Assembly (NCBI GenBank): GCA_963675755.2
Contig: CAXXMD010000003.1
Location: 3,577,765 to 3,641,764, forward strand
Direction of reading: 5' to 3'
Length of the DNA: 64,000 nucleotides
Origin: a bacterium
GTDB lineage: Bacteria > Zhuqueibacterota > Zhuqueibacteria > Residuimicrobiales > Krinioviventaceae
The translations under genes were made by a program, and so were the position numbers. The notes beneath the pieces are model-generated. The model saw only the letters and a list, made by a program, of their open reading frames with translations, was not told the DNA's origin and did not search any database. Shown piece by piece: positions 2,507 through 42,838 of the stretch (the first letter of the stretch is position 1; each line of letters starts with the position of its first letter).

Positions 2507-4510
2507 ATGAAAACACGTATGCTCGTTCTTGTTGTACTGATTTTAGCAGTTACACTTTTTAGCCAGGGAATACCTTACAATCAGGAATTTCAGGTGAATA
2601 CTAGCACCTATGGTTCACAAAAAAATCCAAAAATAGCAGTTCTTTCAAACGGGAATTTTGTTATTTGTTGGGAACAGAACGGCTCTGAATATGGTGTCTA
2701 TGCACAAATGTTTAATTCAAGCGGTAACAAGGTAGGTGATGAATTTCAAGTATACACAAATACAAATGGTAATTATCTTAATCCTGATATCGTACCACTT
2801 TCTAATGGGGGATTTGTGATATGTAGTGAATGTGAAAGTCAGGACGGTTCAGGTTATGATATTTATGTGCAATTATTTAAATTTGATGGTAGTAAAACCG
2901 GTGATGAATTTCAAGTTAATACCAATACAAATTATTCCCGGGGTACAAAAAACATTGAGCAACTATCAGACAAAATCTTTGTGATATGCTGGGAATGTGA
3001 AAGTCAAGACGGATCACGTTTTAGTGTTTATGCAAAATTAATAAATATAGATGGTAATAAAACCGGAGATGAATTTCGAGTCACCAACTATGCAAATAGT
3101 TACAAAGGTGGATGTGATATTGCTGCTCTTTCAGACAGCAGTTTTGTGATATGCTGTGAAAGTTACGAAGAAGATATATCAGATTATAGTATTTATGTAC
3201 AAATATATAATACAGACGGTAGTAATGTCGATGATGAATTTCAAGTTAATGCCTATACAACAGGTAATCAACTTTATCCAGAAATATTATTACTGTCTAA
3301 TGGTAGCTTTGTGATATGCTGGTCAAGCAATGATTGGTATGGGGCAGGTTCAGAGATTTATGCACAATTATTTACTTCAAATGGTAATAAGGTTGGTACT
3401 GAATTTCAGGTGAATACTTGTACAGATAATAATAAATTAGGTCCAGATTTAGTATCATTATCAAACGGAGGTTTTGTTATATGTTGGTCAAGTATCGGAC
3501 AGGATGGTTCAGGTCATGGGATTTATGCACAATTATTCTCTTCAAACGGAAGTAAGGTCGGTGATGAATTTCAGGTCAACACCACTACATATGGTAATCA
3601 AATTAACACTGATATAGTATCACTGTCTGATGGTGGCTTTGTGATATGCTGGGTAAGTTACACACCGCATGCATCAAATGAAGATGTTTATGCACAATTA
3701 TTTACTTCAAATGGTAATAAGGTTGGTACTGAATTTAGAGTAAACACCTATACAGATGGTAGACAATATCGGCCTGATATTGTAGCACTTGAAGATAGAA
3801 AATTTGCAATTTGCTGGAATAGTTGGGGAAAAGGGCAAGATGGCTCATTGGAAGGGATATATGCCAAATATTATTTAACTGAACCTATTATTCATTATTT
3901 ATGTGAATATGAAACGCTTAATCCCGAAAACGCTGAAACCTTGCAATCTATTTATACAACCTTTGTTTGGCAACAACCAAGCGATATTCGCATCTGCTAC
4001 CCCTGGGAGATTGAGTACGATCTGTATCTGTCAACGGATCAGGAATTTTCTAATCCGCTAATATACAATGGTATTCAGGATACCACGTACATCCTCCCCA
4101 CAACCGATTCTCTGCAAGCTGGACAAACTTACTTTTGGAAAGTGCTGGCGAAAAATATAGCGGGGGACAGCCTGTGGAGCTCGAACACCAATGCCTTTTT
4201 CGTCAGTCATACTGCGACTGAAGTGGAGGAAGAAGCGCAGCTTCCTACGGGATTTGCATTGGAGCAGAATTATCCCAATCCCTTTAATCCCGAAACCACG
4301 GTGCGGTACAGCCTGCCGAAAGCGGGAGTTGTGGAACTGAAATTGTACGACATCACGGGCCGTGAGGTGATGTCGCTGGTGAATAATTGGCAATCCGCGG
4401 GGACGCATTCGATTAAAGTCGATGGACGCAATCTGGCGAGCGGGGTGTATGTGTATACGCTGACTGCGGGGGGGTATCGCGAGAGTAAAAAGATGGCGCT
4501 GGTACGATAA
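2507..4510 (+). CDS. Secreted repeat (beta-propeller-like) protein with Fn3-like and T9SS/FlgD-type C-terminal sorting domain, paralog 1
   Basis: Signal peptide; 8 repeats of about 55 aa (EFQVNT...GGFVICW...DGS..IYAQLF); GQTYFWKVLA Fn3-like motif; QNYPNPFNPETT...LASGVYVY...KKMALVR. RBS GAGG. Confidence 0.9.
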   Translation: MKTRMLVLVVLILAVTLFSQGIPYNQEFQVNTSTYGSQKNPKIAVLSNGNFVICWEQNGSEYGVYAQMFNSSGNKVGDEFQVYTNTNGNYLNPDIVPLSNGGFVICSECESQDGSGYDIYVQLFKFDGSKTGDEFQVNTNTNYSRGTKNIEQLSDKIFVICWECESQDGSRFSVYAKLINIDGNKTGDEFRVTNYANSYKGGCDIAALSDSSFVICCESYEEDISDYSIYVQIYNTDGSNVDDEFQVNAYTTGNQLYPEILLLSNGSFVICWSSNDWYGAGSEIYAQLFTSNGNKVGTEFQVNTCTDNNKLGPDLVSLSNGGFVICWSSIGQDGSGHGIYAQLFSSNGSKVGDEFQVNTTTYGNQINTDIVSLSDGGFVICWVSYTPHASNEDVYAQLFTSNGNKVGTEFRVNTYTDGRQYRPDIVALEDRKFAICWNSWGKGQDGSLEGIYAKYYLTEPIIHYLCEYETLNPENAETLQSIYTTFVWQQPSDIRICYPWEIEYDLYLSTDQEFSNPLIYNGIQDTTYILPTTDSLQAGQTYFWKVLAKNIAGDSLWSSNTNAFFVSHTATEVEEEAQLPTGFALEQNYPNPFNPETTVRYSLPKAGVVELKLYDITGREVMSLVNNWQSAGTHSIKVDGRNLASGVYVYTLTAGGYRESKKMALVR

Positions 4511-38541: not shown

Positions 38542-39822
38542 ATGAATTATAGATTTTTTATTTTTTTAATTCTCTTTTCAGTTTCATTACAGGCACAAAG
38601 TGTTTTGACTTTTCAAGATGCAGTCAAAATTGCAATGGAACAGAATCACCAGATTCAAATTGCAGAAAATACAAATAAAATTGCACAAAATAACGTAAAT
38701 ATTGGTAATGCTGGTATGCTGCCCAAATTGAGCTTGACGTCTTCAGGATCATATCAGGACTCTGAATATGACGGAAATGCCTCCAATTCTACAACTACAT
38801 CTGCGGCAGCAGAGCTGAGTTATACTTTGTTTGATGGCTTTGGCAATATTTATCGTTTCAAGAAATTGCAGGCTGCGGGCATGGCGGGTGAACTTGCATC
38901 CCGTTATCAGATTGAATCTACATTGTACAATGTGAGCAGCGGCTATTATAGCGCTGCGCTGGCATCTGAAAACCTGCAGATTGCTTTAGACCAATTGGGT
39001 ATTTCGCAGGAGCGACTGGACCGGGCCGAAAAGAAAGCCCAGTATGGTCAGGCAAACACTATTGAAGTTTTATCCGCACAGGTGGATTTTAACGCGGACA
39101 GTGTTGCCGTATTAAATGCGGAATTAGAGTTGAATAAAGCCCGCAGGTTGTTGAACCAGTTGCTGAATCGGGATATTCATGATAAATATGATGTGGAATC
39201 TGTTGTGAATTTTATACCCGCATTGAATTTTGATGAATTAAATGACAGGGCATTGAATAACAATGCCGCGTATTTACTGGAAGCAAATCAGCTTGAACAG
39301 GAAAAACTGAATGTCAAGATTGCACGATCAGCCAGTTTACCTTCTGTGGGATTGACCAGTTCATACGGTTACAGTCAAACAGAGGCTGGCAAGCATATTG
39401 GTTTGGATGATCCTACCAAAACACTTCGAGTAGGTGCATCTGTCAGTTTGAATCTGTTTAATGGATTTCAGACCCGTATCAATCAGCAGAATGCCAAGCT
39501 GACCTATCAGAACCAGCAGTTGTACGAGCAGGAAGCCAAGCTTGCGTTAGAGACCGAAATCTCGAATGCCTGGGAAGCATATACAAACAGCCGCAGTGTA
39601 CTGGACTTGCAGCAGAAAAACCTTGAGGCTGCAGATCTTAATTTTAAACGCACACAGGAGCTATTTAATCTGGGACAAGCAACAACCACCCAGTTCAGAG
39701 AGGCCCAGTTGAATCTTATTGAGGCCAAGTACAGCATCTCTACCGCAAAGTACTCGGCAAAATTGCAAGAGATTGAGTTGTTGCGCATCTCGGGCAACCT
39801 TGTTGGGAATGAAAAGTTGTAA
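38542..39822 (+). CDS. TolC-family outer membrane efflux protein
   Basis: Signal peptide from ATG 38542; LTFQDAVKIA..N; LP.L; LFDGF/LFNGF; third gene of the efflux operon. Confidence 0.92.
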   Translation: MNYRFFIFLILFSVSLQAQSVLTFQDAVKIAMEQNHQIQIAENTNKIAQNNVNIGNAGMLPKLSLTSSGSYQDSEYDGNASNSTTTSAAAELSYTLFDGFGNIYRFKKLQAAGMAGELASRYQIESTLYNVSSGYYSAALASENLQIALDQLGISQERLDRAEKKAQYGQANTIEVLSAQVDFNADSVAVLNAELELNKARRLLNQLLNRDIHDKYDVESVVNFIPALNFDELNDRALNNNAAYLLEANQLEQEKLNVKIARSASLPSVGLTSSYGYSQTEAGKHIGLDDPTKTLRVGASVSLNLFNGFQTRINQQNAKLTYQNQQLYEQEAKLALETEISNAWEAYTNSRSVLDLQQKNLEAADLNFKRTQELFNLGQATTTQFREAQLNLIEAKYSISTAKYSAKLQEIELLRISGNLVGNEKL

Positions 39823-39842
39823 GTTTTTATGAAATTCTTACA

Positions 39843-39858
39843 TGGCATAATAATTGCT
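39843..39858 (+). promoter_or_regulatory. Putative sigma54 promoter with no downstream + strand protein gene
   Basis: TGGCATAATAATTGCT: exact GG-N10-GC spacing with TGGCA and TTGCT boxes. Confidence 0.55.
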
Positions 39859-39862
39859 TATT

Positions 39863-40033
39863 TTAGCTTGAAAACTTAATTAGTATTGTTAAGATAACAA
39901 TATTAGTTAGGCATAAGTAAAAGATAAAAAATAGAATTATTATACTGACAAGTATTACCCAATTAATTTTTTTATCATAAGTTAATGATAATTTTATTAT
40001 TTGGTTAATTAAATTTATAACAGATTTTACCAT
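39863..40033 (-). CDS. Unannotated 56-aa hydrophobic small protein (type I toxin-like candidate)
   Basis: Hand translation MVKSVINLINQIIKLSLTYDKKINWVILVSIIILFFIFYLCLTNIVILTILIKFSS*; AAGGAGGT directly upstream (short spacing); below the ORF-track cutoff. Confidence 0.45.
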   Translation of the reverse strand: MVKSVINLINQIIKLSLTYDKKINWVILVSIIILFFIFYLCLTNIVILTILIKFSS

Positions 40034-40036
40034 ACT

Positions 40037-40116
40037 ACCTCCTTTTGGGATTCAACTGTAATATTTTTTTTAGACAATTAAGTATTGGCAATGACTATAC
40101 CAAAAGGAGGTTTTTT
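40037..40116. promoter_or_regulatory. 12-bp inverted repeat pairing SD with anti-SD (minus strand); hairpin + U-tract (plus strand)
   Basis: ACCTCCTTTTGG (40037-40048) and CCAAAAGGAGGT (40100-40111), followed by TTTTT. Confidence 0.6.
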
Positions 40117-40467
40117 CATTTTTGTATTTCAGATTACAAAGATGTATGTCATTTGTCCATATTTGTATACACAGTAAGTATTTGTAAATATTCAGGTTGG
40201 GCTGGAGTGATTTTTTTTTAGTTTTTTTTGTTTACTTTTTGTCTTAAGTTCCTAACCCTATATTTTATATGTAGTTTTGAAAGAAAATGTCCCACTCTAT
40301 TTCAAAATTGTTGCATATTTGGGTCAAAATTGTAATTACTATATCATTTTTGGTAATATAATTGATGAAATTTTATTTTTCCAGACACAGGCACCTTTAA
40401 AAATTACTATTTAAACTTTCATAGTACATAATACTTCCCAGAATAATAAATAACTTCATATAATGAA

Positions 40468-42555
40468 TTAACTTCCTCTGATGTTAAAGAATTTTGATTT
40501 GTCTAATTCATTTAGATAAGGACTTATTTTTACTGATTTCCCAAGAATACTTTTAACAGATAAAAAATACAATTCTTTTTTGGTACGAGTAATTGCAACA
40601 TAGAATATTCTTCTTTCTTGTTCAATTTCTTGTTCTGTTTCCGCATACATTATAGGCCAAATTCCATCATTAACATCTAGTAATATAACTATATCATATT
40701 CTTTACCTTTAGCTCTCAATGCTGTCATTATGTGTATTGGAAGATTTAGGTCATCATCATATCCTTCTTTTTCTTTTTCAGGGTTATAATCCATTTTACT
40801 AATAGCTTTTTCAATATGTTCTATAAATTCAAAATAATCATTGTCATATGTTTGTGCATATTCAGAAAGATATAAAAAAGGTGGTTCTTTATAAAAAATA
40901 TCATCATCAGATTTAGCAAAATGTTTTTGAAGCCCTTTAAAATTATTTCCTATCGCTTCGATAGATTCCGAAACAGTTTTTGTTTCAAAAACATTGAGAA
41001 TAGCTATAAGAAAATTTGTTTTGCTTTTTTCTTCTTTTGTTCCTTTTATTGGTCCATTATATGTTTGAAAATATTGAATTGCATCATAAAATGATTTTGG
41101 CTGTTTTGATAACAAATATCTATATAAGCTATTTTTTTCATTTCTTTTTAAGGGGTATGTGTCAATTTTATCACAACATGAAATAAATGAATCAATAGTA
41201 TCTTTTGATAATCGTCTGTCATTTTTTGTTGCAATTGCATAAAGAATGTTTTTTAATGTTTCAAAGGTCTTGCTTAATAAAATATTTAAATCTTCTTTTG
41301 CAAAGTAAGGAATATCCTTTGAGGTTAATAATATTTGTAAAGGAATAATCTGACTTTTTTTTCTGCCAATTACTGCAATTTTTTTTGGGATATTTTGATT
41401 TGCATATTTTTCAGCTAAGTTCATAACAAAATTTAAACTTTCCATATGAGTATTAAAGTTATAGTGCTCTATTTTTGCAGAATCCTTATTGTGTGAGTAT
41501 ATTTGCTTATTTACCCTATAGTTATTATTCTTGATTAATGTCTCTGATATTTCAACAATATTGTATGGCGATCTATAATTATTTTTTAATAAATAATTTT
41601 TAAATTCATTTTCAAAAAAAGTATCTGGATTAAGAATGAAATGGGGTGTAGACCCTCTCCATTCATAGATTGCTTGATCCTCATCTCCAATGAGATCAAG
41701 AGAACTATTGTTTACTGAAACTAGTGTTTTAACAAAATGAAGATCTAAAGGATTAATGTCTTGGAATTCATCAACTAATATGTGATGATAACGATTTGGT
41801 TCTGGGAATGTGTTATTACCGTATTTTTCTTGTAACTTTAACATAGCCCAATATTTTTGATCATCTAATGAAATTATAGCTGTATTCCAAAGATGTTCGC
41901 AGGATTTTTGCCAAAACTGTAAAAACGATTGCAATTGTTTTGGTAAGTAAGAATGGTTATTATCAGCGAGTTCAAGATCAAATATTGGTTGAATAATATT
42001 ATTAACTAAATACCTTTCCAAAAAGTTGTTTTTTAACCATATTAAATGTTCATAAAAATGTTCTTCAATATTATTTGTATCATGTCTAAATCCAGCACTT
42101 TTTAATGAATCGAATATTTCAATTATTTTGTCATATTTGTTCTGTCTTTTTTGTAAAGTTGAGTTTATTAAGGGTATTTCTTTCCAAATTGGTCTCAATA
42201 TATTTTTTATTAAAAAATATTTATCATATTTTGATACTTTAACTTCTATACTTGATTCAACATTTCTTTTTAAATAATTAAAGCCCCACTGATTTAATGT
42301 GTCGATTTTCACATGATTTTTTATATCATTAAATTCAGTGTTCTTGTTTAATCTTTCTTTTAGTTCTTCTTTTGCTACCCTAGTAAAAGTAAAAATTAAG
42401 AATTTATTTGTTTTGCCACTTTTTTGTGCTTTATTAAATTTATAAAGACATCTCCAAAGAAGTGATTGTGTTTTTCCGCTCCCAGCAGGTGCTAATAACC
42501 GTGTGAATTGACCGTTTGAATTACAATATTCGAGTTGATAGTTATCAAGTGTCAT
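40468..42555 (-). CDS. Stand-alone UvrD/Rep (SF1A) helicase, very AT-rich
   Basis: LLAPAGSGKT, FTFTRVAKEEL, LVDEFQD, IGDEDQAIYEWRG, NNYRS, AKGKEYD, ERRIFYVAITR. Start ATG 42555 or GTG 42567. Confidence 0.9.
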   Translation of the reverse strand: MTLDNYQLEYCNSNGQFTRLLAPAGSGKTQSLLWRCLYKFNKAQKSGKTNKFLIFTFTRVAKEELKERLNKNTEFNDIKNHVKIDTLNQWGFNYLKRNVESSIEVKVSKYDKYFLIKNILRPIWKEIPLINSTLQKRQNKYDKIIEIFDSLKSAGFRHDTNNIEEHFYEHLIWLKNNFLERYLVNNIIQPIFDLELADNNHSYLPKQLQSFLQFWQKSCEHLWNTAIISLDDQKYWAMLKLQEKYGNNTFPEPNRYHHILVDEFQDINPLDLHFVKTLVSVNNSSLDLIGDEDQAIYEWRGSTPHFILNPDTFFENEFKNYLLKNNYRSPYNIVEISETLIKNNNYRVNKQIYSHNKDSAKIEHYNFNTHMESLNFVMNLAEKYANQNIPKKIAVIGRKKSQIIPLQILLTSKDIPYFAKEDLNILLSKTFETLKNILYAIATKNDRRLSKDTIDSFISCCDKIDTYPLKRNEKNSLYRYLLSKQPKSFYDAIQYFQTYNGPIKGTKEEKSKTNFLIAILNVFETKTVSESIEAIGNNFKGLQKHFAKSDDDIFYKEPPFLYLSEYAQTYDNDYFEFIEHIEKAISKMDYNPEKEKEGYDDDLNLPIHIMTALRAKGKEYDIVILLDVNDGIWPIMYAETEQEIEQERRIFYVAITRTKKELYFLSVKSILGKSVKISPYLNELDKSKFFNIRGS

Positions 42556-42838
42556 AGAGTACCCCACTCTTAGATTGTATATTTTTAGGAAAGTGGAATT
42601 TATTTGTAAAAATTATCCCCACTTAATTCCCTCTATATTATAAGTAAAAAGAAAAAATTTTTTTTGCAAGTTTTTTTATTAATAATTCTTTTGTTGATAC
42701 TATTTAAATTTAAAGTCTGAGACTTTATTGCTTTTTTCTGCAAAACCCATAAAACCCCCGTTTTTTCTCTCGCTTACTTTTTGAAAAATGATATATTACT
42801 GCAATCAATATTTCACAATTTTTATAGGAGATAGAAAC

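Follow-up and report, generated by a model that had tools for sequence, protein, structure and literature searches.

The 64,000-nucleotide window analysed here (the whole stretch of DNA, C3:3577765-3641764) belongs to a bacterial genome of 6.48 Mb in three contigs with a G+C content (GC) of 0.395, referred to below as G000; positions are those of the window unless a contig is named. Between the stop codons of a TolC-like outer-membrane protein gene on the plus strand and of a helicase gene on the minus strand lies a gap of 645 nucleotides (nt), and this gap contains the locus described in this work. A minus-strand open reading frame (ORF) of 56 codons, ORF56, encodes a small hydrophobic peptide, carries its own Shine-Dalgarno (SD) sequence, and is completely overlapped by an opposite promoter-to-terminator unit on the plus strand. 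This layout was proposed in the initial annotation of the locus, and it holds at the level of sequence signals. The earlier reading had missed, on the strand of ORF56 itself, a putative sigma-54-type promoter facing the one on the plus strand. We tentatively interpret the two units as a sense/antisense pair gated by sigma-54.

ORF56 (39863..40033, minus strand, start at 40033) would specify an orphan peptide of 56 amino acids (aa), in which the N-terminal 24 residues are basic and amphipathic, contain five of the six charged residues, and precede the previously reported hydrophobic stretch, which spans about 30 residues (Kyte-Doolittle 19-residue maximum of 2.81 at residues 25-43; lysines at positions 3, 14, 21, 22 and 53). 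The SD sequence AAGGAGGT that had been seen upstream of the frame (40044->40037, minus strand) is also present, with its GGAGG 4 nt from the ATG. Spacers of 4, 5, 6 and 7 nt between GGAGG and ATG are the commonest ones genome-wide (99, 91, 59 and 75 cases, respectively, for ORFs of at least 150 aa), so that the SD of ORF56, having the preferred spacer of this genome, looks native. SD sequences are in regular use here, since of 3884 crude gene starts 24% have GGAG in the preceding 17 bases, as compared with 2.6% of random 17-mers. The frame as such is of a kind that this DNA readily produces: when the gap was dinucleotide-shuffled 2000 times, 374 of the shuffled sequences held an ORF of at least 56 aa (166 of 2000 when only ATG starts were allowed), the gap also holds a 58-aa TTG frame on the plus strand, and the antisense strand of the helicase gene contains five hydrophobic ORFs of 45-57 aa, rich in phenylalanine, leucine and isoleucine, whose codon scores bracket that of ORF56. 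To this extent the caution expressed in the initial annotation, that A-rich DNA yields hydrophobic ORFs by chance, was right. For the combination of signals, the chance that, 3-9 nt after a GGAGG, an ATG opens at least 56 codons is about 0.001 in simulated DNA of the gap composition, or about 0.002 with GTG and TTG starts included; the SD, the ATG and the 56 open codons are jointly unlikely to have arisen by chance. The SD, its spacing and the promoter upstream are what suggest that ORF56 is a coding frame.

This minus-strand promoter is represented by a -24/-12 motif of the sigma-54 type, TGGTAT-N5-TTGCC (40102-40087, with GG at 40101-40100 and GC at 40089-40088), with a predicted transcription start at about 40076. 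The ATG of ORF56 follows 53 nt after the motif, within the range of 23-278 nt observed for other intergenic sites of the genome. In a local alignment with a second promoter of the same genome, at G000:C3:3003305, the core promoter is identical at 14 of 15 bases, with all of the N5 spacer conserved (z-score 7.45, 0 of 300 shuffles). The latter is one of the 39 intergenic sigma-54-type sites of the genome and lies 71 nt before a gene for a 537-aa protein with a signal-peptide-like start, in a polysaccharide cluster that includes epimerases, glycosyltransferases, a deacetylase and acetyltransferases.

A 62-nt element (40276..40337, minus strand) accompanies both promoters. It is 82% identical to C3:3003096-3003157 (E 3e-10) and is located 175-235 nt upstream of the minus-strand promoter, while its counterpart is about 150-210 nt upstream of the promoter in the polysaccharide locus, where it overlaps an LPG_synthase_TM-family gene by its last nine codons. 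The distribution of the element is genus-specific, with two copies in the studied genome, one in the orthologous polysaccharide locus of the other species compared (G001:C1:942236-942286), and none in the other 17 genomes of the family. It contains an imperfect dyad, and its predicted RNA fold is not significant on either strand in the three copies, so that a protein-binding site is a better fit than an RNA structure; we infer that it is a candidate activator-binding site. A-tracts are found between the element and the promoter (40210-40236, plus-strand numbering). Enhancer-dependent promoters are typically built in this way, from an upstream element, A-tracts and a -24/-12 motif with an SD and an ATG behind it. 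When the two loci are compared, neither the stretch separating element and promoter nor the one following the promoter shows more similarity than shuffled sequences (z-scores of -1.2 and -1.8), a pattern that would be expected if only the functional pieces had been kept. A wider paralogy with the polysaccharide locus was ruled out, as the DNA compared beyond the two conserved blocks is at the shuffle level. Contigs of three sequencing runs from one study matched nothing beyond this contig and the other copy of the 62-nt element. Part of the element (40308-40333) also has a 26-nt direct similarity of 73% to the 3' end of the TolC-like gene (39778-39803), which is probably due to chance, the sister species differing at several of these bases.

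The plus-strand unit opens with the GG-N10-GC motif reported previously, which reads TGGCAT-N5-TTGCT (39843..39858, with GG at 39844-39845 and GC at 39856-39857) and is among the 39 enriched intergenic sites. Transcription from it is predicted to start at about 39869, four bases beyond the stop codon of ORF56. No plausible ORF follows the motif, in agreement with the initial annotation, and the predicted product is a non-coding RNA of about 250 nt (39869..40124) that would be antisense to codons 1-55 of ORF56, the SD, the leader and the minus-strand promoter. As RNA, the plus strand of 39868-40125 folds with -56.4 kcal/mol (z-score -4.70, 0 of 200 shuffles as good), and its reverse complement with -43.8 kcal/mol (z-score -2.83). 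The difference between the strands is concentrated in a 17-bp 5' stem-loop (39875..39911, of which only the core at 39881-39905 had been noted before) that begins 6 nt past the predicted start. It is stable only as plus-strand RNA (-15.2 kcal/mol, z-score -6.09, 0 of 200 shuffles); the minus-strand version reaches only -4.9 kcal/mol (z-score -1.81), with four pairs lost because G-U pairs turn into A-C mismatches. A structure with a role in the plus-strand RNA would be expected to show such a strand bias. At the other end, a long hairpin closed by a 12-bp stem and followed by a T-run (40037..40124; -23.8 kcal/mol, z-score -3.58) is a candidate terminator, which a simple terminator scan missed because the loop is longer than 8 nt. 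The T-run, which the initial annotation had correctly placed after the inverted repeat, comprises six T, CA and four T (40111-40123). A search of Rfam gave no relevant match up to E = 10 in the region 39000-41000.

The two arms of this repeat (40037-40048 and 40100-40111) are complementary at 12 of 12 positions with 51 nt between them, and the pairing extends to 15 nt at 93%. The initial annotation had regarded the outer arm as a perfect anti-SD able to occlude the SD of the small ORF. The repeat is there as claimed, but the masking would not apply to the main predicted mRNA: the anti-SD arm (40100..40111, minus strand), whose last GG is shared with the -24 box, lies upstream of the predicted start at about 40076, so the mRNA would not contain it. 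The leader of this mRNA is 43 nt long and A-rich, without significant structure (z-score 0.10), and leaves the SD essentially free. A 106-nt minus-strand piece that includes both arms folds with -20.1 kcal/mol and has the SD paired (z-score -2.20, 5 of 200 shuffles as good). Being outside the sigma-54 mRNA, the arm would thus serve mainly the plus-strand terminator, and SD masking would be confined to read-through transcripts, which would in practice come from the helicase gene and would include both arms.

To place the two motifs in a genomic context, we counted all matches to TGGYAY-N5-TTGC, with intergenic DNA defined as that outside long open frames (461,463 bases, 7% of the DNA). There are 99 matches in the genome, of which 39 are intergenic. 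Control motifs with spacers of 2, 3, 4, 6, 7 and 8 nt gave 0, 0, 7, 5, 5 and 10 intergenic matches (mean 4.5) and the reversed word gave two. The correctly spaced motif is therefore about 9-fold enriched in intergenic DNA, and about 34 of the 39 sites (~88%) are beyond chance. The total number is uninformative (24 matches to TGGCAY-N5-TTGCW in the genome, about 30 being expected from an order-3 Markov model), so that the signal lies in where the matches fall and not in how many there are. An ORF of at least 60 aa starts on the same strand 23-278 nt downstream of 27 of the 28 intergenic TTGCW matches. The excess of about 34 sites is consistent with the regulatory machinery of the genome. A single rpoN gene, whose absence would in the initial annotation have spoken against the locus, was found (206 bits), together with 34 stretches that match the sigma-54 activator domain, 28 of them strongly (E <1e-39). 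Many intergenic motifs of this sigma-54-rich genome read TGGTAT or TGGCAT rather than TGGCAC, and several TTGCC/G sites adjoin activator genes. The sites at 39843-39858 and 40102-40087 converge at a distance of 245 nt, and no other two intergenic sites of the genome lie within 3 kb of each other; from about 4.5 chance intergenic matches per genome, the expectation of two chance matches in one 645-nt gap is estimated at about 2e-5.

Relatives of the peptide and of the locus were searched for widely. ORF56 had no relative of similar or greater length among 5.8 billion clustered proteins, and scanning all of 1.84 billion representatives with HMMER likewise revealed none; its best feature score in Atlas was 0.76, below a useful level, and it matched no toxin family in Pfam, NCBIfam or PADLOC. 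A tblastn search of its own genome returned three weak matches (E 0.002-3.7). When the DNA of 39700-40600 was compared with 60 related genomes, only the end of the efflux gene and the 62-nt element (in G001) matched, and there was no match in 50,697 phage or 72,556 plasmid records. The conserved copies for which the initial annotation had suggested looking are thus lacking in these collections, apart from the flanking gene and the 62-nt element.

The neighbourhood of the locus differs from that in the sister species. The TolC-like gene, with its stop codon at 39820-39822, is the last gene of a plus-strand RND efflux operon (domain matches to the AcrB family, E 1e-159, and to OEP, E 8e-51). In the one other species of the genus, G001, homology of about 89% breaks off at 39823 and restarts at 42713. 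The intervening segment (39824..42712), which comprises the helicase gene and the 645-nt tail, is thus a strain-specific insertion of low GC: 0.26-0.29 as compared with ~0.40 in the surroundings. The 645-nt gap by itself has a GC of 0.237. Instead of it G001 has 168 bp that include a GC-rich hairpin with a T-run just after the TolC-like gene (terminator hairpin region at L005 1625-1791, opposite window position 39824). On this comparison, the efflux operon of the studied genome has lost its native terminator through the insertion. The 12-bp stem with its U-run would then be the first terminator-like structure met by read-through from the efflux operon, and sigma-54 may thus not be the only driver of antisense transcripts over ORF56. 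Inverted repeats are abundant in the region (33 pairs in 901 nt). A simple terminator scan found no canonical terminator after the helicase gene, and tblastn with the proteins of the polysaccharide locus found no remnant of its genes inside the insertion. A gene of the SusD family was not found in the genome.

Upstream of the small-ORF module and on the same strand is the gene of a 699-aa UvrD/GajB-like superfamily-1 helicase (40468..42567, minus strand, stop at 40468). In a search of 5.8 billion proteins its closest relative had 61% identity, and its relatives are scattered across many phyla; those at 40-61% identity are sporadic and often on short contigs. The impression of a foreign gene given in the initial annotation is borne out by this distribution, by the low GC of the insertion and by its absence from G001. 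The top PADLOC match is GajB (E 7.5e-45), and no GajA-like partner is present within the 2.9-kb insertion; the solitary helicase may be a mobile or defence-related gene. A sub-threshold Rfam match to RF03531, a Clostridioides difficile small RNA located inside a helicase gene (40552-40650, minus strand; 46.1 bits with a gathering threshold of 65.2, E 6e-6), is probably explained by DNA-level conservation of a helicase motif. A single-protein scan of metagenome contigs yielded nothing, and an alignment scan with the helicase gave 80 loci. We examined 16 related loci (L011 and 15 chosen from the 80, as full-length matches at 34% identity or more). A small hydrophobic ORF follows the helicase in one of these 16, the AT-rich contig L011, where a strongly hydrophobic 37-aa ORF (3149-3262) overlaps the stop codon of a 49%-identical helicase (ATGA) in a low-GC context. 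This ORF is probably due to chance, as none occurs in the other 15 loci. A two-gene system of helicase and small membrane protein was ruled out on these grounds, and three upstream neighbours have no family in common.

Building on what was directly observed (the motifs, the genome-wide statistics, the copy relationship and the strand-specific folds), we propose that the locus is a sigma-54-gated sense/antisense pair around an orphan small gene, in which both transcripts, the translation, the repression and the activators are predicted parts. Among the explanations considered it accounts for the signals most economically and is the one we favour; we regard it as quite possible, though short of probable. 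The minus-strand promoter region with its 62-nt element is a copy of the internal promoter region of the host polysaccharide locus, placed in the tail of the helicase insertion. From about 40076 it would produce an mRNA with a 43-nt leader, an exposed AAGGAGGT and the 56-codon frame for a hydrophobic membrane peptide. The plus-strand promoter would make the non-coding RNA of about 250 nt, beginning with the 17-bp hairpin and ending at the 12-bp stem and U-run. Its complementarity to the mRNA would run from codon 55 backwards over the SD and the leader, and would continue across the minus-strand promoter. This antisense unit may silence the peptide gene by pairing as well as by collision or occlusion of polymerases. 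Read-through transcripts from the helicase gene would be masked at the SD, leaving only the promoter-initiated mRNA translatable. A still more specific version, which we consider improbable, is a toxin-antitoxin-like toggle with both promoters enhancer-dependent: an internal promoter in the SD-masking stem would let promoter choice replace RNA processing, the antisense RNA of the opposing promoter would shut the gene off, and the whole would be a two-signal, collision-based device recruited from the polysaccharide regulon.

Several observations weigh against a sense/antisense pair. The length, hydrophobicity and codon score of ORF56 are within the range of non-genic frames of the same DNA, and its SD could exist merely as an arm of the terminator. 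Of the 28 intergenic TTGCW matches, all but the plus-strand motif have a same-strand ORF of at least 60 aa within 400 nt, and no activator site was identified for this motif. The locus is a singleton, with no second copy and an orphan peptide. Among 124 other genomes of the class, 2 contain convergent motif pairs 200-260 nt apart (0 in a control with reversed pattern), which is about the number expected by chance (an estimated three or so), and both stretches look coding by eye; the convergent pair as a recurrent arrangement was accordingly rejected. Finally, the sigma-54 holoenzyme of E. coli is reported to occupy many sites possibly without functional RNAs (PMC4591121).

These points lead to other explanations of the same signals. 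It is unlikely, though not markedly so, that nothing at the locus is regulated at present and that decaying, horizontally acquired DNA has retained sigma-54 motifs as remnants or non-productive sites derived from the polysaccharide locus, ORF56 being spurious or the truncated 5' remnant of a gene. A singleton locus absent from the sister species, AT-rich DNA crowded with inverted repeats and lacking a canonical terminator in the simple scan, and the existence of non-productive sigma-54 sites (PMC4591121) would all agree with such decay. It explains less well why two sites should share one 645-nt gap, given how few chance intergenic matches the genome holds, and why a 17-bp hairpin 6 nt after a predicted start and a terminal stem with a U-run should bound a unit; that no polysaccharide gene remnant was detected speaks against it as well, as does, weakly, the lack of any longer protein resembling ORF56. 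Rather unlikely in our estimation is a function of the plus strand only, as a structured RNA that is either a sigma-54-dependent small RNA or a new 3' untranslated region and terminator of the efflux operon. ORF56 would then be a chance frame, its SD the terminator stem and the minus-strand motif a decaying copy. The far better folding of the plus strand with its strand-specific 5' hairpin, the missing G001 terminator hairpin after the efflux gene, the orphan state of the peptide and the ease with which this DNA yields hydrophobic ORFs of such size are all accommodated. It leaves to coincidence the GGAGG and ATG that open 56 codons at the preferred spacing, and the fact that minus-strand promoter and element kept their similarity to the polysaccharide locus while the DNA between them lost it.

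Conversely, the peptide gene could be the only active part, coding for a small membrane protein under sigma-54 control that is induced along with the polysaccharide genes, and the plus-strand motif could be silent or irrelevant. The classical order of upstream element, A-tracts, -24/-12 motif, SD and ATG is just what such a gene would have; we nevertheless find this improbable, because the plus-strand motif is a full match in the intergenic class in which ~88% of the matches exceed chance, with a strand-specific hairpin and a terminator behind it. The type I toxin-antitoxin-like locus suggested by the initial annotation is a subset of the sense/antisense interpretation that adds toxicity of ORF56, through membrane damage, and a protective role of the plus-strand RNA as antitoxin; such a pair may stabilise the helicase insertion. 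What stands of that suggestion is a hydrophobic ORF of less than 60 aa in an acquired segment, a structured predicted antisense RNA that overlaps it fully, and an SD that could be masked in read-through transcripts. What does not stand is a relation to toxin families, none having been detected in Pfam, NCBIfam or PADLOC for this single-copy peptide without relatives; sequestration of the SD would also not apply to the main predicted mRNA, whose predicted start is downstream of the anti-SD. From the way sigma-54 works, an activator-dependent antitoxin would also be a poor safeguard, and we give the toxin-antitoxin assignment little credence.

Should both promoters of the proposed sense/antisense pair fire, the locus would be a compact natural case of signal-gated antisense control, a two-input switch across one tiny gene, because sigma-54 promoters are silent until an activator acts. 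An mRNA start inside an SD-masking stem would, if true, make translation dependent on the promoter used, and the promoter and upstream element of the polysaccharide locus would represent host regulatory DNA re-used in newly acquired DNA. If the locus is instead a vestige, it offers a methodological lesson: hydrophobic small ORFs and inverted repeats are cheap in AT-rich acquired DNA, and signal can be separated from noise only by genome-wide controls such as those used here for motif spacers and SD spacing. A limited literature search by title or abstract, which is no proof of absence, found neither a sigma-54-driven type I pair nor a convergent sigma-54 pair.

Among the known systems, tisB/istR-1 of E. 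coli is a type I pair in which the antisense RNA covers the 5' region of the toxin transcript and the full-length mRNA is inert. Type I pairs in general are described as a toxin mRNA with a base-pairing antisense RNA (T1TAdb, PMC8594479; a study of Microcystis, PMC12390103), formerly known, according to the latter study, only from Proteobacteria, Firmicutes and Tenericutes (PMC12390103). The cis-encoded type I pair aapA1/IsoA1 of Helicobacter pylori is likewise described as having a translationally inert full-length mRNA (PMC5416894). The locus differs from aapA1/IsoA1 and tisB/istR-1 in that an internal promoter, and not processing, would give rise to its short translatable form, in that both predicted RNAs would need sigma-54 and activators, and in that ORF56 is a single-copy frame with no sequence relation to toxin families. 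It is similar to them in the combination of a small hydrophobic ORF with an overlapping antisense RNA, here a predicted one, and in having an SD-paired form of the mRNA, again a predicted one here, beside a shorter SD-free form, SD masking being a trait of some known pairs.

Antisense sites for sigma-54 have a precedent in E. coli, where many antisense and intragenic sites were recorded and the authors suggest that their transcripts, or transcription itself, may regulate the overlapping gene (PMC4591121). The table of chromatin immunoprecipitation sequencing sites in the same paper includes a weak site, IA27, inside istR and facing tisB (PMC4591121). The sites described here resemble those of E. 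coli in pointing against neighbouring genes; they differ in that two of them face each other across one small gene, and in that one is a copy of a promoter found elsewhere in the same genome.

Small RNAs such as Qrr, CrcZ and NrsZ depend on sigma-54, and so do the established cases GlmY (PMC4152352) and Pxr (PMC10217877). What they share with the plus-strand unit is a structured non-coding RNA with a terminator, placed behind an orphan -24/-12 promoter where no ORF is present. In contrast to the known ones, which act in trans or by sequestering proteins and are conserved in their groups, the RNA predicted here has no Rfam family or relatives and is fully antisense to a small ORF. The geometry of the locus resembles that of the convergent-promoter switches pR/pL of phage 186 and prgQ/prgX of pCF10, which work through transcriptional interference together with antisense RNA. 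In these switches, as at the present locus, opposed promoters stand a few hundred bases apart and their transcripts overlap. Their promoters are of the sigma-70 type and their partners are conserved and characterised, whereas sigma-54 closed complexes await an activator, which would make each side of the present locus gated by a signal.

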